Positions 7,991 to 19,426 of a stretch of 32,000 nt of DNA are shown piece after piece. Numbering within the stretch: the first letter of the stretch is position 1; every line of letters starts with the position of its first letter. Under the pieces are notes generated by a model that made no database searches, was not told the origin of the DNA, and was given only the letters and a program-made list of their open reading frames with translations. Source of the DNA: Alkanindiges sp. WGS2144 (GTDB lineage Bacteria; Pseudomonadota; Gammaproteobacteria; Pseudomonadales; Moraxellaceae); the NCBI RefSeq assembly GCF_043950625.1, contig NZ_CP171007.1; one strand, 5' to 3'. The position numbers were made by a program, and so were the translations under genes.

Positions 7991-8754
7991 GATGTTTCGC
8001 TTTCTGGTAGTGGCTGGGGAGCAATGGCGATGGATGAAAGATCGGTGGCCTCGTCGATGACGTGGCCGGCCGCTTTCCGTTCGGAATAGCGGTCTGTCAG
8101 TGCTTCACGGTGCGGCCGTACCAGCGCCGTGAAGCGCACCAGTTCTTCCATCACATCGGCTATTCGGTCGTAGTACGGCGAGGGCTTCATGCGGCCCGCC
8201 GCGTCGAACTCTTGGAACGCTTTGGCGATACTCGACTGGTTCGGAATGGTGAACATTCGCATCCAGCGGCCGAGCAGACGCAAGGTGTTCACGGCGTTGA
8301 AGCTCTGCGAGCCGCCGGATACCTGCATCACGGCCAGGGTGCGGCCTTGGGTCGGCCGGATGCCGGCCATTTCAAGCGGCAGATGGTCAATCTGCGCCTT
8401 CATGACACTGGTAATCTGACCGTGGCGTTCCGGGCTGCACCAGACTTGTCCCTCTGACCACTCGGACAGGGCGCGCAGCTCCTTGACGGCCGGGTGATCG
8501 TCGCTTTGCACTTGATCGGGCAACGGCAAATCGGACGGGTCGAAGATGCGTGTTTCTGCGCCAAAGAATTGCAGCAGCCGGGCCGCTTCCTCGACGGCCA
8601 GCCGTGAGAACGAGCGGGCGCGCAGCGAGCCATACAGCAGCAGGATACGCACCGGCGGGGCGTCGGGTGCCAGCCCGAGCGCCGGGCGCTCGATGGCAAA
8701 GGATTTGTCCAAAGCGGGCAAAGAATCGGGGTCGGAAAGATGGCGAAGTCTCAT
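7987..8754 (-). CDS. arsH: ArsH, NADPH-dependent FMN reductase
   Basis: The sequence contains [19 protein letters not shown]...[17 protein letters not shown] typical of ArsH. I chose the start at 8754 because it forms an ATGA overlap with the arsR stop; the longer ORF to 8796 would overlap arsR by 46 nt. Confidence 0.85.
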
Positions 8755-9083
8755 GCCAACACCTTCCCGGCTTCCGTGGTGCAAGACAGGTTGCACACCT
8801 GGCCGCCGCAGCAGTTTTCCGTGAGAAAGGCCACCAGGTTAGTGGCCGTCGAAAAGTTCGCCTCGTAGATCACAAATCGGCCTTCTTGCCGCGACGTGAC
8901 CATGCCGGCGTGTGCCAGCTCTTTCAGGTGGAAGGATAGCGAAGACGGCGGGATGCCGGCCGCTTCGCTGATTTTTCCGGCGGCCATGCCGGCGGGGCCG
9001 GCCTGGACGAGAAGCCGGAACACCGCGAGGCGCGATTCTTGAGCGATGGCCGCCAGGGCGGCTACAGCATTTATCGTTTCCAT
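8751..9083 (-). CDS. arsR: ArsR/SmtB-family repressor with a C-terminal Cys cluster
   Basis: It has a winged-HTH core ([16 protein letters not shown]). It lacks the canonical ELCVCDL site and instead has ENCCGGQVC near the C-terminus, which resembles the Acidithiobacillus-type As(III) site. Confidence 0.85.
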
Positions 9084-9119
9084 GTTTCAATAATAGTCGA
9101 AATATGGAGTGTGCTCAAT

Positions 9120-9146
9120 AGCTCATTTAAGCTGTAAAAATGAGCT
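9120..9146. promoter_or_regulatory. Perfect 9-bp-arm inverted repeat in the arsR / recombinase divergent region (candidate operator)
   Basis: The repeat is agctcattt-aagctgtaa-aaatgagct, 37 bp upstream of the arsR start. Confidence 0.4.
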
Positions 9147-9230
9147 AGGCGCATTTAGATCGATATGTGATAAATTGGCCTGCCAGTTTAAGATGGGTGC
9201 ATTTGAGTATGCCCAAAGGAGCCCGCAAGT

Positions 9231-9968
9231 ATGCGCAGGACGAAGCCAGTAGCCGCGCCGATGGTGGCGCGGGTCTATCTGCGCGTCAGCACCGACGCGC
9301 AGGACTTGGAACGCCAAGAGGCGATCACTACGGCCGCGAAGGCCGCCGGCTACTACGTCGCCGGCATCTACCGTGAGAAGGCATCCGGCGCACGCGCCGA
9401 CCGGCCTGAGCTGCTGCGCATGATCGGCGACCTACAGCCCGGCGAGGTGGTCATTGCCGAGAAGATCGACCGCATCAGCCGCCTACCTTTGCCCGAGGCC
9501 GAGCGCCTGGTGGCCTCGATACAGGCCAAAGGCGCACGCCTGGCCGTCCCTGGCGTGGTCGATCTATCCGACCTGGCGGCCGAGGCCCAGGGCGTCGCCA
9601 AGATCGTGCTGGAAGCCGTGCAGATCATGCTTTTTCGCCTGGCCTTGCAGATGGCCCGCGACGACTACGAGGACAGGCGCGAACGCCAGCGCCAAGGCAT
9701 TGAGTTGGCCCGCCAGGCCGGGCGGTACAAGGGCCGCCGTGCTGATCCGAAGCGCCGCGCCCAAGTTGTCGCGCTGCGCAAGTCCGGCTACAGCATCAAC
9801 AAGACCGCCGAGCTGGCCGGGTACAGTGCGGCCCAGGTGAAACGGATATGGGCCGAGGTCAGCCAGGCCGAAGCGAAGCAGCACGGCGCGTTCGTGGAGG
9901 ACGCATTGACGGAAGCCGATGCCCTGGCCGCTGTCGGCCAGGATGAGCGCCAGGAGGAAAGGGCATGA
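9231..9968 (+). CDS. Small serine recombinase (resolvase/invertase family)
   Basis: It has the catalytic motif YLRVSTDAQDLERQ, then ADRPEL...GEVVIAEKIDRISR and a C-terminal HTH (GYSINKTAELAGYSAAQVKRI). An AAGGAG RBS precedes 9231. An alternative start is MVARVY at 9261. Confidence 0.85.
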   Translation: MRRTKPVAAPMVARVYLRVSTDAQDLERQEAITTAAKAAGYYVAGIYREKASGARADRPELLRMIGDLQPGEVVIAEKIDRISRLPLPEAERLVASIQAKGARLAVPGVVDLSDLAAEAQGVAKIVLEAVQIMLFRLALQMARDDYEDRRERQRQGIELARQAGRYKGRRADPKRRAQVVALRKSGYSINKTAELAGYSAAQVKRIWAEVSQAEAKQHGAFVEDALTEADALAAVGQDERQEERA

Positions 9969-10189
9969 AGAAGCCGAACCAAGACGACGAGCCGTTTTTC
10001 ATCACCGAGGAGATTGCGGCCGAAATGATCGCCGGCGGCTATGAGTTCGAGCTGCCGCCCATTCCTTGCACCATCCGCCTACGCGACGTGCTGGAGCGCA
10101 TGACCGATGCTGAGCTAGCATTGCAGCCGGGCGAGATCGCCGACCAGGAGCGTGAACGCTGCCGGCGCAAGCCGTGTTCAACCTCATGA
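9965..10189 (+). CDS. Hypothetical acidic protein (74 aa), translationally coupled to the recombinase gene
   Basis: It forms an ATGA overlap with the recombinase stop. I recognise no family. Confidence 0.45.
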   Translation: MKKPNQDDEPFFITEEIAAEMIAGGYEFELPPIPCTIRLRDVLERMTDAELALQPGEIADQERERCRRKPCSTS

Positions 10190-10195
10190 TCTGGT

Positions 10196-10288
10196 CATGG
10201 TATTTTTCATGGCACTGAGCCTGATAGTTCTTGCAAATTGTTGTCACTAAAGGGTTTTGTGTGCTTGTTTACAATCGAGTGGGAGTGA
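10196..10288 (+). other. Internal bipartite att-like site A (guaA 3'-end mimic)
   Basis: Block 1 is catggtatttttcatgg (10196-12). A 51-bp spacer follows. Block 2 is cttgtttacaatcgagtgggagtga (10264-88), which reads L-F-T-I-E-W-E-stop. Site B at 13488-13580 has the same architecture. Confidence 0.55.
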
Positions 10289-12126
10289 CGGGCACTGGCT
10301 GGCAATGTCTAGCAACGGCAGGCATTTCGGCTGAGGGTAAAAGAACTTTCCGCTAAGCGATAGACTGTATGTAAACACAGTATTGCAAGGACGCGGAACA
10401 TGCCTCATGTGGCGGCCAGGACGGCCAGCCGGGATCGGGATACTGGTCGTTACCAGAGCCACCGACCCGAGCAAACCCTTCTCTATCAGATCGTTGACGA
10501 GTATTACCCGGCATTCGCTGCGCTTATGGCAGAGCAGGGAAAGGAATTGCCGGGCTATGTGCAACGGGAATTTGAAGAATTTCTCCAATGCGGGCGGCTG
10601 GAGCATGGCTTTCTACGGGTTCGCTGCGAGTCTTGCCACGCCGAGCACCTGGTCGCTTTCAGCTGTAAGCGTCGCGGTTTCTGCCCGAGCTGTGGGGCGC
10701 GGCGGATGGCCGAAAGTGCCGCCTTGCTGGTTGATGAAGTACTGCCTGAACAACCCATGCGTCAGTGGGTGTTGAGCTTCCCGTTTCAGCTGCGTTTCCT
10801 GTTTGCCAGCCGGCCCGAGATCATGGGGTGGGTGCTGGGCATCGTTTACCGCGTCATTGCCACGCACCTGGTCAAGAAAGCGGGCCATACCCACCAAGTG
10901 GCCAAGACGGGCGCGGTCACCCTGATCCAGCGTTTTGGATCGGCGCTCAATCTGAATGTTCACTTCCACATGCTGTTTCTCGACGGTGTGTATGTCGAGC
11001 AATCCCACGGCTCAGCGCGTTTCCGCTGGGTCAAGGCGCCGACCAGCCCAGAGCTCACCCAGCTGACGCACACCATCGCCCACCGGGTGGGTCGCTATCT
11101 GGAACGGCAAGGCCTGCTGGAACGGGATGTCGAAAACAGCTATCTGGCCTCGGATGCGGTGGATGACGACCCGATGACACCCCTGCTGGGGCACTCGATC
11201 ACTTACCGTATCGCTGTCGGTTCACAGGCGGGGCGAAAGGTGTTCACTTTGCAAACTCTGCCGACCAGTGGTGATCCGTTCGGTGACGGGATTGGCAAGG
11301 TAGCCGGGTCCAGCCTGCACGCCGGCGTGGCGGCCAGGGCCGATGAACGCAAGAAGCTCGAACGGCTGTGCCGGTACATCAGCCGCCCGGCGGTATCCGA
11401 GAAGCGGCTGTCGTTAACACGAGGCGGCAACGTGCGCTACCAGCTCAAGACGCCGTACCGGGACGGCACCACGCACGTCATTTTCGAACCATTGGATTTC
11501 ATTGCAAGGCTGGCCGCCCTGGTACCGAAGCCCAGAGTCAACCTAACCCGCTTCCACGGGGTGTTCGCACCCAACAGTCGGCACCGGGCGTTGGTCACGC
11601 CGGCAAAACGGGGCAGGGGCAACAAGGTCAGGGTGGCTGATGAACCGGCAACACCAGCACAACGGCGAGCGTCGATGACATGGGCGCAACGGCTCAAGCG
11701 TGTTTTCAATATCGACATCGAGACCTGCAGCGGCTGCGGCGGCGCCATGAAAGTCATCGCCTGCATTGAAGACCCTATAGTGATCAAGCAGATCCTTGAT
11801 CACCTGAAGCACAAAGCCGAAACCAGCGGGACCAGGGCGTTACCCGAAAGCCGGGCGCCACCGGCTGAGCTGCTCCTGGGTCTGTTTGACTGACGAGCCT
11901 GAAGGCCAACGATACCAATCAAAATGCTGCGTTCACAGCGCCGCGGCAGGGATCCGCCGTGCTGGTTGTCGGAAAAGGAGCCGCTAGTGGGAAAGAGGAG
12001 GGTAAATTTTCAGCGTTGCTGGCTCCCCGTCAGCCGGATTGGGTTGCATCGCAGGGGTGTCGAAAGAGTCAACTGCGGTCCAAAGCTGTTGGACTTGGGT
12101 GAAAAGGGCGTTTATTCTTCCTATAC
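10289..12126 (+). mobile_element. ISCR2 (CR2), IS91-family rolling-circle element. The right (oriIS) end is placed at 12126; the left (terIS) end is only approximate.
   Basis: It contains the ISCR2 transposase gene. The right boundary ...gggcgtttattcttcctatac | gttg matches my recollection of IS91/ISCR oriIS ends and coincides with the point where glmM homology stops. The left boundary cannot be fixed from the sequence alone. Confidence 0.7.
10400..11893 (+). CDS. rcr2: ISCR2 rolling-circle transposase (IS91 family, 497 aa)
   Basis: It has an N-terminal zinc-binding region (CESCHAEHLVAFSCKRRGFCPSCGARR), the HUH-type motif NLNVHFHMLFLDGVY and a C-terminal CSGCGG. The length and sequence match ISCR2 as I remember it. 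Confidence 0.9.
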   Translation: MPHVAARTASRDRDTGRYQSHRPEQTLLYQIVDEYYPAFAALMAEQGKELPGYVQREFEEFLQCGRLEHGFLRVRCESCHAEHLVAFSCKRRGFCPSCGARRMAESAALLVDEVLPEQPMRQWVLSFPFQLRFLFASRPEIMGWVLGIVYRVIATHLVKKAGHTHQVAKTGAVTLIQRFGSALNLNVHFHMLFLDGVYVEQSHGSARFRWVKAPTSPELTQLTHTIAHRVGRYLERQGLLERDVENSYLASDAVDDDPMTPLLGHSITYRIAVGSQAGRKVFTLQTLPTSGDPFGDGIGKVAGSSLHAGVAARADERKKLERLCRYISRPAVSEKRLSLTRGGNVRYQLKTPYRDGTTHVIFEPLDFIARLAALVPKPRVNLTRFHGVFAPNSRHRALVTPAKRGRGNKVRVADEPATPAQRRASMTWAQRLKRVFNIDIETCSGCGGAMKVIACIEDPIVIKQILDHLKHKAETSGTRALPESRAPPAELLLGLFD

Positions 12127-12371
12127 GTTGTCGGCAGCGGGCCAAAAAGGAATACGTCCATGCCCATCGAGGTGAAACCGGCTGTGAGCGCGGGTTCAAG
12201 CATATAGCCCGACAGGCGCGTATCCTTGCCGATCACGACACGATGGCGGTGGTCACCGCGACGAAAGACACGGCCAGCCGCCATGCCGACGCGCAAGGCG
12301 GTTTCCGCCGTCATCGCGCCTTCGTTGGCTTTGCCACGAATACCGTCTGTGCCGAAATATTTGCGCACCAT
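12127..12371 (-). pseudogene. glmM: 5' fragment of phosphoglucosamine mutase gene (delta-glmM), truncated by the ISCR2 oriIS end
   Basis: [16 protein letters not shown]...[18 protein letters not shown]...GPLPT is collinear with the GlmM N-terminus and then runs into ISCR2 sequence. Only ~81 GlmM codons remain. Confidence 0.85.
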
Positions 12372-12457
12372 AAGGTCGATTATCCTGTCGTCGGGTCGCC
12401 CTCAAAGGGGACATGCCTGCTGAACCGCGAATATAGAGAAATATCCCGAATGTGCAG

Positions 12458-13273
12458 TTAACGAATTCTTGCGGTTTCTTTCAGCGCCGCCAATACCGCC
12501 AGCCCGTCGCGCAAGGGGCGCGGCTCGTGTGTGCGGATGAAGTCAGCTCCACCTGCGGCGGCGGCAAGCTCTGCAGCGAGTGTCGCGGCCCCGACATCCC
12601 CCGGACCACGGCCTGTGAGCGCGCGCAGAAAGGATTTGCGCGAAACAGACAGAAGCACCGGCAAATCGAAGCGCAGCCGCAATTCATCGAACCGCGCCAG
12701 CACCGAGAGCGAGGTTTCGGGAGCAGCCCCCAGAAAAAACCCCATGCCGGGATCAAGGACAAGGCGGTTGCGTTTGATACCGGCACCCGTCAGCGCCGCG
12801 ATGCGCGCGTCAAAGAACGCCGCAATGTGATCCATGATGTCGCCAGCGGGTGCCTCGCGCCGATCTGCCTGCCCGTCTTGCACCGAATGCATAACGACGA
12901 GTTTGGCAGATGATTTCGCCAATTGCGGATAGAACGCAGCGTCTGGAAAACCGCGAATATCATTGAGATAGGCCACACCACGCGACAAGGCATAGGCTTG
13001 CGTCGCGGGTTGATAACTGTCGAGCGAGACGGGAATGCCATCTGCCTTGAGCGCGTCCAGCACCGGCGCGATACGCGCGATTTCTGTGTCGGACGAAACA
13101 GGCGCGGCGTCGGGATTGCTGGATGCCGGACCGAGGTCGATCACATCTGCCCCCTCGGCCATCAGCTTACGCGCCTGCGCAATGGCTGCGTCTGGCGCCA
13201 GATACCGGCCTCCATCGGAGAAACTGTCCGAGGTTATGTTGACGATGCCGAAAATGATGAGCGATTTATTCAT
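12458..13273 (-). CDS. sul2: Sulfonamide-insensitive dihydropteroate synthase Sul2
   Basis: The 271-aa ORF begins MNKSLIIFGIVNITSDSFSDGGRY and ends LKETARIR, matching Sul2 as I recall it. It is adjacent to delta-glmM and ISCR2, the classical context. Confidence 0.95.
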   Translation of the reverse strand: MNKSLIIFGIVNITSDSFSDGGRYLAPDAAIAQARKLMAEGADVIDLGPASSNPDAAPVSSDTEIARIAPVLDALKADGIPVSLDSYQPATQAYALSRGVAYLNDIRGFPDAAFYPQLAKSSAKLVVMHSVQDGQADRREAPAGDIMDHIAAFFDARIAALTGAGIKRNRLVLDPGMGFFLGAAPETSLSVLARFDELRLRFDLPVLLSVSRKSFLRALTGRGPGDVGAATLAAELAAAAGGADFIRTHEPRPLRDGLAVLAALKETARIR

Positions 13274-13487
13274 GGGGGCTTCTATAATAATAATAATCGA
13301 GCATGAGTATCATACGGATGCTCGGGTCGAAAGGGAATCCCCAGGCGAGTAACCTGTTTGCGGTGATCCATTAGCTGCAGGAGCAGAAGAGCATACATCT
13401 GGAAGCAAAGCCAGGAAAGCGGCCTATGGAGCTGTGCGGCAGCGCTCAGTAGGCAATTTTTCAAAATATTGTTAAGCCTTTTCTGAG

Positions 13488-13580
13488 CATGGTATTTTTC
13501 ATGGTATTACCAATTAGCAGGAAAATAAGCCATTGAATATAAAAGATAAAAATGTCTTGTTTACAATAGAGTGGGAGTGA
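13488..13580 (+). other. Bipartite att-like site B, the probable attR / right end of the island
   Basis: Block 1 is catggtatttttcatgg (13488-504), with the CATGGTATT direct repeat at 12-bp spacing. A 51-bp spacer follows. Block 2 is cttgtttacaatagagtgggagtga (13556-80), which reads T-I-E-W-E-stop. The composition switches to host-like AT-rich DNA here. Confidence 0.6.
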
Positions 13581-13586
13581 TATTTG

Positions 13587-13620
13587 GCAGTGCTGCCTGC
13601 TAGAGTATGGCAGCACTTTG
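13587..13620 (+). terminator. Hairpin immediately after the guaA-like stop codon (candidate displaced guaA terminator)
   Basis: The stem agtgctgcc (13589-97) pairs with ggcagcact (13609-17) around an 11-nt loop. There is no strong T-run, so this is tentative. Confidence 0.3.
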
Positions 13621-13737
13621 CATAAATAAATATTAAGCCAAAATTTTCGTCTTTTATTGACGTGTGAGAATAAGGGTATTTACCATTTTTAAGCAAAACC
13701 AAATACAGAGCGGAAACTAGCTCCTTTCATCACGTTG

Positions 13738-14433
13738 TTAGGCACTTTTGGCCCATTGTTTCGCATGCCATTGGTAATATATTCTGCTATTTTTCCAGTT
13801 CTTGACTTGATTGCCATCTATTTTAGACAAAGCTTCTTCTAGTCTAATCGTAGTTCTTACATTCAAATTTCTGGTAACAAGTCCCTCCTTAATAAATACA
13901 TAGCCCTTTTCAAAAAAATCATCACAACCAAGTTTACACATCAATGATGCAATATTTGAAAAGTCTAATTTTTCGTGATTAGTACACTCTGACCTCTTCT
14001 TGATATGTGCAGCCACAAGCATATTTTCAGGGAGTTCATTATCACAGATTACGCACTTTCCAAATGGTTTCCCTTGAAGTAAAAAGGAACGTAAGAGTGT
14101 TTGCTCTATACGTCTTTTAGTTTTTGATTCGACATCAAGATTAGTATTTAAGATAGCCTTTTTTAACTCCTCTTCAACATTTGAAGAGCCGATGCAATCA
14201 ATATTTTTACTTACTATGAGAGATGGTGCGGAACCTATGCTTTTATTTGACATCCGTGCCCCATATCCCATGCGCACTAAAGCCTCTAATTGCTCTAATG
14301 TTTCAACTTTTACATAGTCAACTTCATAGCGCGTATGAGAAGCAATATATTTTTTATCCTTATGCAAGTGTGGATAAAGAGGTTTTCCAGCATTATTCTT
14401 ACTACGCTTATCCACGTATGCAACCAAGTTCAT
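13738..14433 (-). CDS. Solitary HNH-type (HNH_2/McrA-like) nuclease with an unrecognised ~120-aa N-terminal domain
   Basis: The C-terminal half, RRIEQTLLRSFLLQGKPFGKCVICDNELPENMLVAAHIKKRSEC...DFSNIASLMCKLGCDDFFEKGYVFI, follows the HNH_2 pattern (R.GQ..FR..LL....C.I.G......L.AAHI.P....D..N.L.LC...H..FD.G). It has a CxxC...CxxxC zinc pair. The last His is replaced (GCDDFF). The gene is very AT-rich relative to both flanks. Confidence 0.7.
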   Translation of the reverse strand: MNLVAYVDKRSKNNAGKPLYPHLHKDKKYIASHTRYEVDYVKVETLEQLEALVRMGYGARMSNKSIGSAPSLIVSKNIDCIGSSNVEEELKKAILNTNLDVESKTKRRIEQTLLRSFLLQGKPFGKCVICDNELPENMLVAAHIKKRSECTNHEKLDFSNIASLMCKLGCDDFFEKGYVFIKEGLVTRNLNVRTTIRLEEALSKIDGNQVKNWKNSRIYYQWHAKQWAKSA

Positions 14434-14655
14434 TTAATTTCCTTTAGTAAGCACTTTCAGAAATGCACAATACTTTAATACTGCGCAGGTTTGCATTTGA
14501 ATATAACAATAAATAATATTTTCAATTTAATATCATGATTAATGTAACTAGCTGAGTTGAAAAGCACAATTGGTCTGCACTATTGCTTATATTTATAAAA
14601 ATTAATTCAATCCACATTTGTATTTTCTAATTTGCGAACCTCACCAAATAAAGCT

Positions 14656-14665
14656 AGTATATACT
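14656..14665. promoter_or_regulatory. Perfect palindrome within the putative vapB promoter (candidate VapB operator)
   Basis: The palindrome agtatatact overlaps a TAGTAT/TATACT -10-like hexamer and lies ~30 bp upstream of the vapB start. TTGCGA lies about 17 bp further upstream. Confidence 0.35.
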
Positions 14666-14693
14666 TCACATATATAGCAAGATGAGGATAAAA

Positions 14694-14927
14694 ATGTCTA
14701 CTGGCTCAGTTTTTTTAAATAATCGCACGCAAGCAGTGCGCCTGCCTGCTGAAACTCGTTTTCCTGAGCATGTGCGGCAAGTCAATGTTCGGGTAAAAGG
14801 AAATGAACGTATTTTGTCACCTATAGAACACACGTGGGATAGCTTCTTTTTATCTACTACTCAAGTGCCTGATGACTTTTTACCAGAACGCGCTGAACAA
14901 ATAGATACTGAGCGTGAAAGCTTTTAG
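14694..14927 (+). CDS. vapB: VapB antitoxin (AbrB/SpoVT type; MvpA-like)
   Basis: VFLNNRTQAVRLPAETRFPEHVRQVNV...ERESF is collinear with Shigella/Salmonella VapB (MvpA). The GAGGAT RBS favours the ATG at 14694 over 14682. Confidence 0.85.
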   Translation: MSTGSVFLNNRTQAVRLPAETRFPEHVRQVNVRVKGNERILSPIEHTWDSFFLSTTQVPDDFLPERAEQIDTERESF

Positions 14928-14989
14928 TTATTTACGTTTCATTGTCCTATCTTCTTAAAATCTAAACCTATAATAATTCGGGCCGCCGC

Positions 14990-15388
14990 ATGCTGAAATA
15001 TATGCTGGATACCAATATTGCCATTTATGTGATTAAACGTCGGCCAATATCCGCACTAGAAAAATTTAACCAGCATGCCAGTCAAATGTGCGTGAGTAGC
15101 ATTACCGTGGCAGAGCTTATTCATGGTGCTGAAAAAAGCCAGAATAGTCAGCAGGCGTTTGCTGTGGTCGAGGATTTTCTATCGCGCTTAAGCATCTTGG
15201 ACTATGATTATTCCGCCGCAGGGCATTACGGTGATATACGTGCCGTTCTGGAGCGAAAAGGCACCCCGATTGGCGTAAATGACTTGCATATTGCTGGGCA
15301 TGCACGTAGCGCTGGCTTAATTTTAGTGACCAATAACCTGCGTGAGTTTGAGCGTGTCGAAGGGTTACGCCTAGATAATTGGGTTTAA
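14990..15388 (+). CDS. vapC: VapC PIN-domain toxin (MvpT-like, initiator-tRNA-cleaving subfamily by similarity)
   Basis: MLKYMLDTNIAIYVIKRRP...SSITVAELIHGAEKS...DLHIAGHARSAGLILVTNNLREFERVEGLRLDNW is collinear with the enterobacterial VapC MvpT. An alternative start is at 15002. Confidence 0.9.
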   Translation: MLKYMLDTNIAIYVIKRRPISALEKFNQHASQMCVSSITVAELIHGAEKSQNSQQAFAVVEDFLSRLSILDYDYSAAGHYGDIRAVLERKGTPIGVNDLHIAGHARSAGLILVTNNLREFERVEGLRLDNWV

Positions 15389-15414
15389 GCCATAAACATT
15401 TAAAAGGTTAAAAT

Positions 15415-15690
15415 ATGCCCGCCATCGTCCGCCACATTTTAGTTAAAACTCGCGAACAGGCCGAACAGCTAAAAAGCCAGCTAGCAAAGGGCGCAGATTT
15501 TGCCAAGCTGGCCAAACAACACTCCACCTGTAATTCGGCTAAGAAAGGTGGCGAGCTGGGTGAAGTTAAAAAAGGTCAGTTGGTCAAACCAATTGATACA
15601 GTGGTGTTTAGCAAGGCAGAGCGGGTGGTACATGGGCCGATCAAAAGCCAGTTTGGTTTTCATCTGGTGGAAATCAAGTTTCGCTATTAA
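15415..15690 (+). CDS. ppiC: Parvulin-type peptidyl-prolyl cis-trans isomerase C
   Basis: The 91-aa ORF has HILVKTREQAEQLK...GGELGEVKKGQLVKPIDTVVFS...GPIKSQFGFHLVEI, the PpiC pattern. Confidence 0.85.
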   Translation: MPAIVRHILVKTREQAEQLKSQLAKGADFAKLAKQHSTCNSAKKGGELGEVKKGQLVKPIDTVVFSKAERVVHGPIKSQFGFHLVEIKFRY

Positions 15691-15718
15691 TGCTTACTAT
15701 GTTTTTATCAATCAAAAT

Positions 15719-15749
15719 AAGAAGCATGAGTTTTTAACCCATGCTTCTT
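15719..15749. terminator. Bidirectional terminator hairpin between ppiC and the convergent small gene
   Basis: The 10-bp stem aagaagcatg / catgcttctt has an 11-nt loop and A/T-rich flanks. Confidence 0.6.
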
Positions 15750-15765
15750 ACAAAGAATAAACCAG

Positions 15766-15951
15766 CTAGCGTGATTGCTGATAGTTGTTATGGTTAGTCT
15801 GCCCACCTTCTGGGCCAAGACCTGAGTTACGGTTCTGGCGGGTGCTCTGGTTGCGGTTATCTTGATTGTTACCGCCATGATCCTGCACCAGCTGTCCATT
15901 GACTTCTTTCACATTATGACCACCAGCAGGCTGGTTTTGCTTATGAGACAT
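15766..15951 (-). CDS. Small (61 aa) highly hydrophilic Asn/Gln/Gly-rich protein, hydrophilin-like
   Basis: A strong GGAGG RBS lies 7 nt before the ATG and the terminator hairpin lies just downstream. The sequence MSHKQNQPAGGHNVKE...GGNNQDNRNQSTRQNRNSG has no hydrophobic core. Confidence 0.6.
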   Translation of the reverse strand: MSHKQNQPAGGHNVKEVNGQLVQDHGGNNQDNRNQSTRQNRNSGLGPEGGQTNHNNYQQSR

Positions 15952-16116
15952 AAGGTTCCTCCATTACTGAGCTGACACTTTTACCCTAAAGCAAACTGGC
16001 TTTGCTGGCTGTTAAGAAATGCTGTGTTTTTAATGTTTATGTAATAGTTTGCTTCTAACCGTAGCAAAAGCGACTACACTGTTTACATCTTAAAGCTGTC
16101 TGCCTGGGAACATCGT

Positions 16117-17118
16117 ATGTCTGGATTGTCATCATGCAAATATTCTATTCTGGATTTAGCGCCCATTCGGGATGATGGTGACGCAGCCACTGCATTAAAA
16201 AACTGCCTGAGCCTAGCACAGCATGCTGAACAATGGGGTTATACCCGTTTCTGGGTAGCAGAGCATCACAATATGGATGGTATTGCCAGCTCGGCTACAG
16301 CGGTACTGGTGGGTTATCTGGCAGCCAATACCAACAGTATTCGGGTAGGTTCAGGCGGGGTGATGCTACCCAATCATTCACCGCTGGTCGTGGCTGAACA
16401 ATTTGGGACGCTGGCAGCCTTGTATCCCAACCGTATTGATTTAGGGCTGGGGCGTGCACCGGGCGCAGATCAGTACACGGCGAGGGCGTTACGCCGTAAC
16501 CATCTGGAAACGGCTGAGGAATTTCCTGAAGATGTAAGCATGATTCAAACCCTGTTGGGGGATGAGCAGCCTAACCAGCGCATTAAAGCAGTGCCAGGAC
16601 AGGGCACGCATGTACCCATCTGGCTGTTGGGTTCCAGCCTGTTTAGTGCGCAACTGGCTGCTGCCAGGGGTTTGCCTTATGCTTTTGCATCGCATTTTGC
16701 GCCACGTTTCATGATGGATGCCATCCGTCTGTATCGGGAAAATTTTAAGCCATCCAATGTTCTGCACAAGCCCTACGTGATGCTGGGCGTGCCACTGATT
16801 GCTGCCGATACCGATGAGCAGGCGCATTATCTGGCTACCAGTCTGTACCAGCGTATTTTAAATTTAATGCAGGGTAAAAGTATTAAAAGCCAGCCGCCGG
16901 TTCAGCACATGCCGCCATTAAGCCTGCAGGAACAGGCTGGCCTGAACAGCTTTTTAGGCATGGCAGCCATTGGTTCAGCAACTACGGTACAGCAGCGGTT
17001 AACCCAGATTATTGAGCAAACACAAGCAGATGAGCTGATTTTTACTGGTGATTTATACGACTGGTCAGACCGTTTGCATAGCTTTGAAATTTTAGCGCAG
17101 ATTTTTAAAAATGCTTAA
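16117..17118 (+). CDS. LLM-class (luciferase-like) flavin-dependent oxidoreductase, YhbW-like
   Basis: [27 protein letters not shown]...[22 protein letters not shown]...[11 protein letters not shown] is typical of this family. Confidence 0.85.
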
Positions 17119-17226
17119 CCTAAACAGTGACAGATCAGTATAAATAAAAAGTCTAATAATCCCTTAATTTTTTTATGGAATTGTTATACTGCCTGCTTGA
17201 AAATTTGGGGTTGAAGGGCTTTTTTT

Positions 17227-18030
17227 ATGACATCACTGCAAAGAACATCATCGCATGTGCTGTTTGATAATGGCGTGCACAAATGTATTAGCTTTACCAG
17301 TCTGGTAAAGGGGGAAGGAGTTCAGGCCAATCAGTTTTTAATTATTGATGGTCAGGAAGCAGCCGTGATTGATCCGGGGGGTGATTTAACCTATACACCG
17401 CTTACCATTGAGCTGTCACGCTATGTACGGCTGGAAAATTTAAAATATGTCATGGCATCACATCAGGATCCGGACATTATTACCTCCATGCCGCGCTGGC
17501 TGGTACACACCAATGCCAAGATTGTAGCATCCAAGCTATGGGCACGTTTTTTGCCACACCTCAATTCGGCGTTTATGAGTGATCGTATCAAAGGCGGTAG
17601 CTGGCTGGATCGTTTGATTGAAGTGCCTGATCAGGGGCAAACCATTACTTTAGGCAATTCTTCTCTCAAGATCGTACCAGCCCACTTTTTACATTCAGTG
17701 GGTAACTTTCAGTTTTATGATCCGGTTGCCAAAATTTTGTTTTCCGGCGATATGGGGGCATCCATTGTGGATACTGCCAATGAGCCGGTGCAGGATTTTC
17801 TGGCGCACGTCCCAACCATGAGGGGCTTTCACCAGCGTTATATGACGTCCAGCCGGGTTATTCGCTTATGGGCCAATATGGTGCGTAATATGGATGTTGA
17901 GATGATGGTGCCACAACATGGTCGTCCGTTTTATGGCAAGGAGATGATCCACCAGTTTCTGGACTGGGTGGAAAGCCTGGAATGCGGGATTGATTTATTA
18001 ACACAGTCAAACTATCGCTGCCCAGACTAA
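17227..18030 (+). CDS. MBL-fold metallo-hydrolase / di-iron (flavodiiron-N-terminal-like) domain protein
   Basis: It has the metal motif ASHQDPDI (H-x-D-x-D) and later His/Asp ligands (SGDMG, VPQHG). The exact function is not assignable. Confidence 0.7.
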   Translation: MTSLQRTSSHVLFDNGVHKCISFTSLVKGEGVQANQFLIIDGQEAAVIDPGGDLTYTPLTIELSRYVRLENLKYVMASHQDPDIITSMPRWLVHTNAKIVASKLWARFLPHLNSAFMSDRIKGGSWLDRLIEVPDQGQTITLGNSSLKIVPAHFLHSVGNFQFYDPVAKILFSGDMGASIVDTANEPVQDFLAHVPTMRGFHQRYMTSSRVIRLWANMVRNMDVEMMVPQHGRPFYGKEMIHQFLDWVESLECGIDLLTQSNYRCPD

Positions 18031-18038
18031 AAAAACCT

Positions 18039-18071
18039 GCCTAATCCCTCTGGTATAAAGGGGGATTAGGC
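18039..18071. terminator. Bidirectional terminator hairpin between the MBL gene and argA
   Basis: The 10-bp stem is gcctaatccc / gggattaggc, preceded by an A-run. Confidence 0.6.
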
Positions 18072-18079
18072 CAATGTCT

Positions 18080-19426
18080 TCAAATATTTTTCATAAAGAT
18101 TTTGGAGTTACGCTGATAGTTGTATAGCGCCTGACGGGCATTAGGCATGGCTTCTACGGGAGCCGGTTCAAAGCCCTGTTCAATAAACCAGTGTGCGGTA
18201 CGGGTTGTCAGGACGAACAGGTGGTGAATGCCTTTGCTGCGTGCCTTGGCTTCCAGATAATCCAGTAACTCGGCACCCCGGTTACCACTGCGGTAATTGG
18301 GATGCACGGCTACACAGGCTATTTCGGCGGCTTGTGGCTCGTCATTACTGGTAGGAATAGGATACAGGGCAGCACAGCCCACAATCATGCCATCACGTTC
18401 AATCACGGCAAATTTGTCGATCTCGGTTTCCAGCCGCTCACGTGAGCGATATACCAAAATACCTTCTTCTTCCAGTGGGCGTAACAGTTCAATTAAGCCG
18501 ACCACGTCGTCAATATCAGCAATGCGGATTTCTTCATAGGGGTCATGGCTAATGAGGGTACCGGAACCATCACGGGTAAACAGTTCCTGCAATAATGCAC
18601 CATCTCGCGCGTAGGAGATAATATGCACCCGGCGCACCCCACCGCGGCAGGCTTCTGAGGCACCTTTCATATGTAGTAAGAGTTCAGAGTCCAGTGGTTT
18701 GTTTCTTAAATACTGATCCACTTCATTGGGAATCAATTCACGTAACAGGCGGTCATCGTCATCACTAATGCCTTCTTTTTCACCCAGGAAAATCAGCTTA
18801 TCGGCTTTTAGGGCAATGGCGGTTTTAACCGCGACTTCTTCGGCCAGCAGGTTAAACACTTCACCGGTAGTTGAGTAACCGGTTGGCCCCAGCACAATAA
18901 TATTGCGATTGGCCAGATTTTTTTGCAGGGCGTCCACATCCACCGAGCGCACCTCGCCGGTAAGCTGATAGTCCACGCCATCACGCACGCCATAGGGACG
19001 CGCAGTAACAAAGTTACCTGACACGGCATCAATGCGTGCGCCATACATGGGGGAGTTGGCTAGTCCCATGGATAACAGGGCTTCAATTTCCAGGCGAATA
19101 GAACCTACCGCGTCCAGTACACAGCGCAGGGCTTCACGGGTGGTAATGCGCAGGTCATTATGAAATGGGGTTTCCAGATGATATTCAATCAGGTTTTCAT
19201 TGATTTGCGGTCGGGCACCGTGCACCAGAATCAGCTTGATCCCCAGTGAATGCAGCAGGGCGATATCATGAATAATATTGCGAAAATTTTCATGGTTAAC
19301 CGCTTCACCGCCAAACATCAGCACAAAGGTTTTATCACGGTGGGCATTGATATAGGGTGCAGAATTACGAAACCAGTGAACATATTGTTCAGTCATGGTA
19401 TCCGGGCATAAAAATTCATCGGTCAT
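18080..19426 (-). CDS. argA: Amino-acid N-acetyltransferase (N-acetylglutamate synthase)
   Basis: FVHWFRNSAPYINAHRDKTFVLMFGGEAV marks the AAK domain, and a C-terminal GNAT domain is present (IACVAVHPNYRSGNRGAELL). An alternative start is at 19396. Confidence 0.9.
   Translation of the reverse strand: MTDEFLCPDTMTEQYVHWFRNSAPYINAHRDKTFVLMFGGEAVNHENFRNIIHDIALLHSLGIKLILVHGARPQINENLIEYHLETPFHNDLRITTREALRCVLDAVGSIRLEIEALLSMGLANSPMYGARIDAVSGNFVTARPYGVRDGVDYQLTGEVRSVDVDALQKNLANRNIIVLGPTGYSTTGEVFNLLAEEVAVKTAIALKADKLIFLGEKEGISDDDDRLLRELIPNEVDQYLRNKPLDSELLLHMKGASEACRGGVRRVHIISYARDGALLQELFTRDGSGTLISHDPYEEIRIADIDDVVGLIELLRPLEEEGILVYRSRERLETEIDKFAVIERDGMIVGCAALYPIPTSNDEPQAAEIACVAVHPNYRSGNRGAELLDYLEAKARSKGIHHLFVLTTRTAHWFIEQGFEPAPVEAMPNARQALYNYQRNSKIFMKNI

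Follow-up and report, generated by a model that had tools for sequence, protein, structure and literature searches.

Two guaA-like attachment sites bound the ISCR2-delta-glmM-sul2 module of a GIsul2 island in Alkanindiges sp. WGS2144

The stretch analyzed in this study is a 32,000-nucleotide segment of contig NZ_CP171007.1 from Alkanindiges sp. WGS2144 (assembly GCF_043950625.1), hereafter called the window. We are highly confident that positions 1 to 13580 of the window belong to GIsul2, an integrative mobilizable element, and form its rightmost 13.6 kb, with the element probably inserted at the 3' end of the host guaA gene; this confidence refers jointly to the whole explanation given below, i.e., the identity of GIsul2, its attachment (att) sites, the layout of their arms, the action of the integrase (Int), and the capture of a circular module. 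Within the island, the ISCR2 (CR2) element, a truncated glmM (delta-glmM), and the sulfonamide resistance gene sul2 form a module that is bounded by two Int attachment sites, designated A and B in this text, and is movable as a unit, which has already been known since 2022 (Zhang et al. 2022, Front Microbiol 13:905865, PMC9376610). The interpretation offered in a preliminary description of this DNA, which was made from the sequence alone, is supported but not new because the internal site (attLR) and the Int-dependent movement of the unit were published in that study. The additions made here are modest: an arm-repeat signature that extends across the family, the presence of the island without the module (GI12K) in complete Escherichia coli genomes, a separate lineage of the site B arm, and a diverged relative of ISCR2 in which the left end is fused to an att core.

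Window positions 1 to 13581 align colinearly and without gaps to the GIsul2 copy of E. coli 10R (positions 4802 to 18382 of that locus, L001), with 99.98% identity. Only three differences are found, at positions 13309, 13389, and 13577, the first two of which both lie between the start codon of sul2 and site B. The gene order of GIsul2 is int-alpA-repA-repC-trbJKL-TA (toxin-antitoxin)-ars-resG-CR2-delta-glmM-sul2 over approximately 15.4 kb, and the part present in the window follows this order. In E. coli 10R, the arrangement is guaA-attL-int...sul2-attR; attL, int, and alpA (and guaA) are expected approximately 1.9 kb to the left of the window, outside the field of view. On the side that lies within the window, attR is present and its core is followed by the host-type sequence GTGA and a terminator-like hairpin, which makes the guaA location probable. 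The G+C content falls from approximately 0.6 to 0.35-0.44 past position 13580, and database matches to GIsul2 or CR2-sul2 end at 13575 to 13581, in line with the earlier remark that host-like AT-rich DNA begins right after site B. All GIsul2 copies end in the core of site B, which confirms its assignment as attR. The two sites comprise the following features.

10196 to 10215, plus strand: arm block of site A, CATGGTAT-tttt-CATGGCAC, with a degenerate second repeat; the repeats lie at -81 and -69 bp from the core.
10213 to 10263, plus strand: spacer of site A, 51 bp, unrelated to the spacer of site B.
10264 to 10288, plus strand: 25-mer of site A, which contains attLR (19 bp, 10270 to 10288) and the core GAGTGGGA (10277 to 10284).
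10281 to 10299, plus strand: published terIS of CR2/ISCR2, GGGAGTGACGGGCACTGGC (PMC9376610), which starts inside the site A core.
13488 to 13507, plus strand: arm block of site B, CATGGTAT-tttt-CATGGTAT, with two perfect repeats 12 bp apart (13488 and 13500).
13505 to 13555, plus strand: spacer of site B, 51 bp.
13556 to 13580, plus strand: 25-mer of site B, i.e., attR, with the core GAGTGGGA at 13569 to 13576; GIsul2 copies end there.

The 17-mer CATGGTATTTTTCATGG is present in exactly two copies in the window (10196 to 10212 and 13488 to 13504), and no further copy was found there with up to three mismatches allowed (chance expectation, 0.15). The 25-mer CTTGTTTACAAT(C/A)GAGTGGGAGTGA is found at 10264 to 10288 and 13556 to 13580 (chance expectation, 0). 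Both pairs are direct repeats at a distance of 3292 bp, as described previously, and the distance from the 17-mer to the start of the core is 64 bp. The doubling of the repeat at a 12-bp spacing in site B and its imperfect second copy in site A, CATGGCAC, were also correctly recognized. The two spacers are equal at exactly 15 of 51 positions, which agrees with their earlier description as near random, and the outer flanks of the sites are equal at 21 of 60 positions on the left and 16 of 60 on the right, i.e., at the random level. Both 25-mers end in aca-atN-gag-tgg-gag-tga, which reads T-I-E-W-E-stop; the proposed mimicry of the GuaA C terminus is borne out by genuine guaA genes, which end in ATIEWE and a stop codon in E. 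coli and in GTIEWE in a Rhizobium metagenome-assembled genome (MAG).

The base following the core, position 13577, is G in the window and A in E. coli 10R, and positions 13577 to 13580 of site B read GTGA, where attR of E. coli has ATGA. Because position 13577 differs between the hosts, the last four bases of site B are the stop region of the host guaA; the single mismatch counted between the 25-mers is correct and is specific to this host because GTGA is host derived. In E. coli, attL is accattGAGTGGGAATGA, followed by the int-proximal arm of the island, and attR is acaataGAGTGGGAATGA, followed by E. coli DNA; the comparison of attL with sites A and B, which had been proposed as a check, thus returns the same core. 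To judge from these sequences, strand exchange must be confined to GAGTGGG(A). As read from the sequence of the E. coli attB, GAGTGGG(A) lies between the short inverted repeats CATT...AATG, which are putative core-type sites.

The internal site has a published counterpart. Zhang et al. described a third att site, attLR, which is 19 bp long, is located 112-130 bp upstream of rcr2, and has the same core, GAGTGGGA, as attL and attR (PMC9376610). In the window, the start of rcr2 at 10400 places attLR at 10270 to 10288, and the end of the island at 13576 to 13580 is located approximately 304 bp upstream of sul2. Site A, which the preliminary description had recognized as a second, internal att site without knowing of an earlier report, is therefore attLR. 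In Shigella flexneri, the attLR x attR junction of the excised CR2-sul2 circle was detected by nested polymerase chain reaction (PCR) and sequencing, and the attL x attR junction of excised GIsul2 was likewise detected; in recA-deficient E. coli, GIsul2 and CR2-sul2 each integrated into a cloned attB (PMC9376610). The gain and loss of the module as a unit, which had been predicted from the sequence, are thus experimentally established. Recombination was abolished by the deletion of int or of the three att sites, whereas the deletion of rcr2, resG, or the rep region left it unaffected, and overexpression of AlpA resulted in more excision (PMC9376610). The absence of an effect of the resG deletion leaves no role for the adjacent serine recombinase that had been considered earlier.

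Products of recombination between sites A and B also occur naturally. A synthetic A x B deletion junction, in which the arm and core of site A run into the DNA that follows guaA in E. coli, was used as a BLAST query. This predicted junction is present at full length in 5 of 5,426 complete E. coli genomes, with 100% identity in four of them. The chromosome of E. coli VE-F5 has the order guaA-int-...-resG-orf-site A-yfgI, and the accessions of its island proteins are those of GIsul2. Site A arms without the module are also present in three metagenome contigs: in L069, an arm and spacer identical to those of site A are followed by unrelated, non-CR2 DNA, and L066 and L068 have diverged site A arms and spacers without CR2. 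Relatives of this kind, the search for which had been suggested, are therefore on record, as are A x B products in the form of both the experimentally detected circle (PMC9376610) and the natural junctions in the five E. coli genomes. CR2-sul2 alone at guaA was found in none of the 5,426 complete E. coli genomes. In the published survey, the island without the module was named GI12K and was found in three complete betaproteobacterial genomes, and its occurrence in gammaproteobacterial draft genomes was suspected to be an assembly artefact (PMC9376610).

The boundaries of the module were examined in plasmids, among which at least 5,000 records matched the ISCR2/sul2 sequence. A query centered on site A matched 4,495 plasmid records. 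GIsul2 contexts match this query throughout, and the matches of ISCR2 outside GIsul2 begin at query positions 219 to 233, corresponding to window positions 10268 to 10282, inside the 25-mer and core. Because ISCR2 copies in other contexts begin in the core, at 10277 to 10282, neither the 17-mer nor the spacer forms part of ISCR2. Outside GIsul2, ISCR2 is accompanied only by the core and the sequence to its right and not by the full 93 bp of site A; the possibility raised earlier that site A is an invariant part of ISCR2 fails on this point, as other copies start within the 25-mer and core. At the other end, the sequence upstream of sul2 ends exactly at 13575/13576, in the site B core, in most of 4,451 plasmid records. 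In small RSF1010-like plasmids, this match ends at 13368 to 13373 without site B. These sul2 contexts, for which a search had been proposed, stop approximately 200 bp short of site B.

The GIsul2 Int contains a PF13356 Arm-DNA-bind_3 domain (residues 2 to 88, E = 1.1e-19), which is followed by the central and catalytic domains, and alpA is located downstream of int (annotation and Pfam). The 304 bp of the int-proximal arm contain six copies of the degenerate motif A[TC]GG[TC]A[TC] (background, 0.66 per kb per strand), and sites A and B contain two each; on the CR2 side of site A, no copy is present over 412 bp. In left arms, ATGGTA is located at about +141/153, +190 (reverse strand), +217, and +285. 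For the right arms, 32 representatives were collected in two scans without selection for the 17-mer, i.e., one of IMG/VR for the core plus the left-arm terminator and one of metagenomes for copies of the 25-mer with a base other than C after them. The repeat pair has its best match at -81 to -83 and -69 to -71 from the core in all but one of these arms (31 of 32). The pair takes the form CATGGTAT-tttt-CATGGTAT in GIsul2-like elements and GACGGTAT-ataaa-ACGGTAy in epsilon15-like prophages. Across 35 aligned sequences (arms together with sites A and B), the information content peaks only at the pair and the core, and the middle is weakly A/T-rich. A scan of contigs from species genomes for 17-mer-core gaps of 40-62 bp, a range that lies below the 64-bp distance of GIsul2 and places GIsul2-type sites outside the scan, returned four relatives with shorter spacing.

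These comparative data support the layout of an arm site plus a core that had been proposed for sites A and B, and they make the GGTAT pair a candidate for arm-type Int-binding sites. In the published work, the att sites are 19-bp units, and arms are not mentioned at all (PMC9376610); Harmer et al. 2017 may have described arm repeats of GIsul2. The exact consensus of integration host factor (IHF), WATCAANNNNTTR, is absent from the spacers of both site A and site B, and an IHF site in the GIsul2 spacers is a conjecture. In the published sequencing of cointegrates, attR was represented by 1,741-34,155 reads and attLR by 5-471 reads, i.e., approximately 10-100 times more for attR (PMC9376610). 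We hypothesize from the sequences of the two arms that the greater efficiency of attR is due to its two perfect repeats, compared with one perfect and one degenerate repeat in attLR.

The arm of site B (approximately 13478 to 13580, from -90 to the core) has approximately 90% identity to an arm in the metagenome contig L064 and approximately 80% identity to an arm in Nitrosomonas sp. Nm51 (L003), and its relatives are found in elements without CR2. Diverged arms of the site A type, on the other hand, adjoin homologues of the 74-amino-acid (aa) open reading frame (ORF) that precedes site A. The comparison indicates that the arms of sites A and B are of different ancestry.

The published experiments and the sequences compared here point to the following mechanism. 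Each site consists of a right-arm block (a GGTAT-type tandem pair at 12 bp), a variable spacer of approximately 51 bp, which may hold a site for a DNA-bending protein, and a core that lies in the last codons of guaA. The tyrosine integrase of GIsul2 exchanges strands within the GAGTGGG(A) segment, such that recombination of attL with attR excises the whole island and recombination of attLR with attR releases the 3.3-kb ISCR2-delta-glmM-sul2 circle. In this circle, attP combines the arm of site B with the core and the left end of ISCR2, and the circle can reintegrate at any guaA-type core. If such a circle was captured at attR of a GI12K precursor, the right arm of the precursor would have become the site A arm and the arm of the circle would have become the site B arm. 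The arrangement in the window appears to be best explained by this capture, which is the simplest history. Excision, integration, and the dependence on Int and the att sites are taken from the published experiments, and the anatomy, the boundaries, the natural junctions, and the conservation of the arm pair are taken from the present sequences; from these, we infer that the GGTAT pair is bound by Int and that the events followed the order given above.

Several points weigh against this account. Excision is rare in standard culture, for which nested PCR was needed, and GI12K circles (attL x attLR) were not detected in the experiments (PMC9376610). The GGTAT pairs are candidate arm sites, and the att sites of the published work are 19 bp long. 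The CR2-sul2 circle lacks the int-proximal arm and yet integrates (integration per PMC9376610); because a one-armed circle integrates, either the full set of arms is not strictly needed or such a circle integrates inefficiently. The GI12K copies of E. coli could represent precursors instead of products of a deletion, and capture, accretion followed by decay, and loss cannot be read apart from one structure.

The boundaries could also be attributed to ISCR2 itself, with site A as its terIS and site B as a fragment of a CR element; the module would then move by the rolling-circle mode, and the resemblance to guaA would be incidental. The published terIS, GGGAGTGACGGGCACTGGC, does start inside the site A core (PMC9376610), ISCR2 copies in other contexts begin there, and the ISCR2 relative in L064 has GAGCGGGAGTGAC 119 nt upstream of its transposase gene. 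However, ISCR2 copies outside GIsul2 lack both the 17-mer and the spacer, along with the left half of the 25-mer, and site B has no adjoining CR sequence and is an att arm with relatives in CR2-less elements. Moreover, the deletion of rcr2 is neutral while the deletion of int abolishes recombination (PMC9376610), and the same core serves as attB/attP of epsilon15-like phages, which lack ISCR. We therefore consider this attribution very improbable. A reading of the 17-mer as the start of a gene on the reverse strand (CC-ATG-AAA-AAT-ACC-ATG, MKNTM) or as an element of the sul2 promoter is scarcely credible. The ATG is always on the reverse strand, and a 108-aa ORF begins from it in the Rhizobium MAG (L002), but in most loci the reverse ORFs span only 8-33 aa (8 aa for site A and 13 aa for site B) and show no relationship to one another, and the MKNTM start was rejected for this reason. 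The block is also nucleotide-identical across alpha-, beta-, and gammaproteobacterial elements while the flanks diverge; in the phage subgroup, ACGGTAT occupies this place and destroys the ATG, and site A has no downstream gene to serve. The probability that A and B are merely the ends of a recent segmental duplication and act as RecA substrates only is negligible. Direct repeats do surround a module that is lost in some genomes, but the identical runs are only 17 and 12-13 nt long and the spacer is at the random level (15/51); because the runs are too short, RecA recombination would be inefficient at A and B, and excision and integration in fact occur in recA-deficient cells and need Int (PMC9376610).

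Tandem accretion, in which a second, complete guaA island related to GI12K was inserted downstream and ISCR2-sul2 later replaced or deleted all of it but the right arm, is rather unlikely, although it fits the tandem guaA arrays that are common in the data (L029, L045, L002, and L064) and the fact that the arms of sites B and A belong to different lineages. No second left arm or int is present, and no arm motif occurs in the 412 bp that follow the site A core on its right. The left end of ISCR2 meets the core at the same nucleotide as in the diverged relative in L064, and because this junction nucleotide is shared, a CR end and core that travel as a unit fit better than a deletion that stopped at the core. 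Since the L064 relative shares both the distance and the junction, the link between the ISCR2 left end and the att core is old. The outcome of accretion is functionally equal to that of circle capture, i.e., the end state is the same.

In comparison with the known GIsul2 att sites and CR2-sul2 unit (Nigro & Hall 2011; Harmer et al. 2017; Zhang et al. 2022, PMC9376610), the window contains the same element with the same three-att layout and the core GAGTGGGA. Relative to the 2022 study, the arm-type sites, the conserved 64-bp distance between the 17-mer and the core, and the separate ancestry of the arms are additions, and the host of the present copy is neither E. coli nor Acinetobacter baumannii. 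Similar to GIsul2, the epsilon15-like phages (Uetakevirus: epsilon15, phiV10, SPN1S, and vB_EcoP_ZX5) integrate at the 3' end of guaA, with the core attGAGTGGGAATGAtt as in GIsul2. The Int proteins of epsilon15 and GIsul2 are homologous, with 54% identity, and guaA is the recognized target of the epsilon15 integrase cluster. The attP of the epsilon15-like phages also has the geometry of GIsul2: a tandem repeat pair is located at -81/-69, a spacer leads from it to the core, and a terminator comes next, after which the int-proximal arm contains additional repeats. In the GenBank record of epsilon15, GGTGACGGTA at the position of the pair and in the int-proximal arm is labeled as integrase binding, a label whose basis is not established, and IHF sites are labeled in the spacer. 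The arm repeat is GACGGTAT/AACGGTAT in the epsilon15-like phages, whereas it is CATGGTAT in GIsul2, and the former are phages while GIsul2 is a mobilizable island. To our knowledge, the epsilon15-like phages have neither an internal third att site nor an int-less resistance module.

Heterobivalent tyrosine integrases of the lambda type recognize arm-type and core-type sites, with bending by IHF and directionality set by Xis or AlpA. GIsul2 resembles this type in the arm-binding domain of its Int, the non-core repeats in both arms, and alpA; it differs in that the CR2-sul2 circle is one-armed yet integrates, and the binding of Int to the repeats is predicted in GIsul2. For ICESt1 and ICESt3 of Streptococcus thermophilus, cis-mobilizable elements (CIMEs) and tandem accretion of integrative elements have been described. 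The likeness lies in an int-less, att-bounded segment that is moved by the integrase of a neighbor and in arrays at a single attB. Unlike in CIMEs, the integrase family, host phylum, and target gene are different, and the int-less unit holds an IS91-family element, the supposed terminus of which is half of an att core. The unit shares two features with the ISCR2/IS91 rolling-circle elements (Toleman et al. 2006, as cited in PMC9376610): the product of rcr2 is a Y2 transposase, and the terIS boundary is the left end of the unit; in contrast to IS91-type elements, this boundary is a tyrosine-integrase att core, and rcr2 is dispensable for the observed movement (PMC9376610).

A wider proposal is put forward tentatively, as a possibility that we hold to be clearly short of probable: the GGTAT pair at approximately 81/69 bp before a guaA-like core may be the signature of a wide att family in alpha-, beta-, and gammaproteobacteria and their phages, which would include int-less cassettes moved in trans and in which the terIS of ISCR2 would be half an att core. 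The proposed arrays of guaA cassettes would be loosely similar to an integron but would be driven by a heterobivalent integrase. The candidates for int-less cassettes within this family are those of L002 and the toxin-antitoxin cassettes of L064. In L002 (Rhizobium sp. MAG DASWOH010000226.1, reverse strand 1630-6820), two cassettes of approximately 2.6 kb lie in tandem behind guaA. At the start of each, CATGGTAT motifs are located at +92, +129 (reverse strand), and +156, counted from a core; each ends in the 17-mer and a core, and the last core is doubled 18 bp apart. The cassettes contain one large ORF each (478 and 520 aa), for which Pfam returned no family, and no integrase; by their sequences, they look like int-less cassettes that are mobilized in trans.

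The L064 contig (Ga0209347_1007053) contains an array of three guaA-type cores at 3727-8331. The first part of the array consists of a site-B-like arm and core (3807) and an AbiE-like toxin-antitoxin cassette, followed by a GGTAT pair and core (5781), a ParE-type cassette, and the degenerate core GAGCGGGAGTGAC (6574). This last core lies 119 nt upstream of a frameshifted ISCR2-like transposase gene, the product of which has 63-85% amino acid identity to Rcr2. In L003 (Nitrosomonas sp. Nm51), the gene beside the site-B-like arm (1680-2519, minus strand) encodes the N-terminal domain of an AAA_15 (OLD/Gabija-like) ATPase. Together with the toxin-antitoxin cassettes of L064, this ATPase suggests defence or addiction genes as a frequent cargo of guaA-site cassettes.

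The IMG/VR proviral contigs L045 (12852) and L029 (9607), which derive from isolate genomes, contain an epsilon15-like right arm with a GIsul2-type left arm directly after it. The prophage arm is composed of the Rz gene, an ACGGTAT pair, and the core, and the island left arm of L045 is identical to that of GIsul2; on this sequence evidence, the two contigs show a phage and an island in tandem at one guaA site. In L071 (Ga0316193_10112466, approximately 1860-1880), the 17-mer-like block AATGGTATTTTTCATG lies approximately 70 nt past a match to the core-containing 25-mer, at the end of the contig, and may represent a nearly empty slot in an att array.

A further junction of the site A core is found in several Klebsiella and Citrobacter plasmids, e.g., pBSI047-KPC2 of K. 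pneumoniae (NZ_MT269830.1; L006 4226-4300; hits H110-H114), in which the core is joined at GAGTGGG/TATCGGAGACG (the slash marks the joint). The junction falls within the arm repeat CATGG/TATCGG, at a point 27 bp upstream of the start codon of the GIsul2 int gene. Judged by its sequence, it looks like secondary-site (TGG) recombination between attLR and the int-proximal arm, which brings to mind the reduced "TGGG" specificity that Zhang et al. described (PMC9376610).

sul2 and the ISCR2-linked genes floR, tet(X), and strAB are among the most widespread resistance genes. If the wider proposal of an att family is true, integrases and not rolling-circle transposition would account for much of the spread of ISCR2-linked resistance genes (sul2, floR, and tet(X)). 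The movement of the unit in the absence of demonstrable transposition of ISCR2 is explained by the Int attachment sites that bound it, a point already made in 2022. The gain from the present analysis is practical rather than conceptual, i.e., a signature of the sites, natural deletion products, and a candidate reason for the gap between attR and attLR. The signature of a GGTAT pair, approximately 64 bp, and GAGTGGGA finds such sites and int-less cassettes in genomes.

The remaining features of the island and of the adjoining host DNA in the window are as follows.

1 to 9230, plus strand: GIsul2 backbone, which starts inside repA and contains repC, trbJ-K-L, the ptaRNA1 toxin, and arsR-H-C-B (alignment and annotation).
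9231 to 9968, plus strand: resG, a serine recombinase of the resolvase family (Pfam Resolvase and HTH_7).
9965 to 10189, plus strand: 74-aa ORF (WP_000743213.1), the last gene of the 12-kb island GI12K (annotation).
10400 to 11893, plus strand: rcr2, the IS91-family transposase (Y2) of ISCR2 (Pfam Zn_Tnp_IS91 and Y2_Tnp; annotation).
12069 to 12371, minus strand: truncated glmM, N-terminal domain of phosphoglucosamine mutase (Pfam PGM_PMM_I), equivalent to L001 16870-17172.
12458 to 13273, minus strand: sul2, sulfonamide-resistant dihydropteroate synthase (Pfam and annotation), with the ATG at 13273.
13590 to 13619, plus strand: host hairpin GTGCTGCC...GGCAGCAC, followed by TTT, read from the sequence.

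The 74-aa ORF matched no Pfam family. Its stop codon at 10189 leaves 6 nt before the 17-mer of site A, and all of the contexts returned by an exact-protein look-up continue into ISCR2. The hairpin at 13590 to 13619 is probably the native terminator of guaA, displaced by the island. The host part of the window contains argA, argE, yciK, and nadC, and its closest nucleotide match, at approximately 69%, is to A. baumannii chromosomes.

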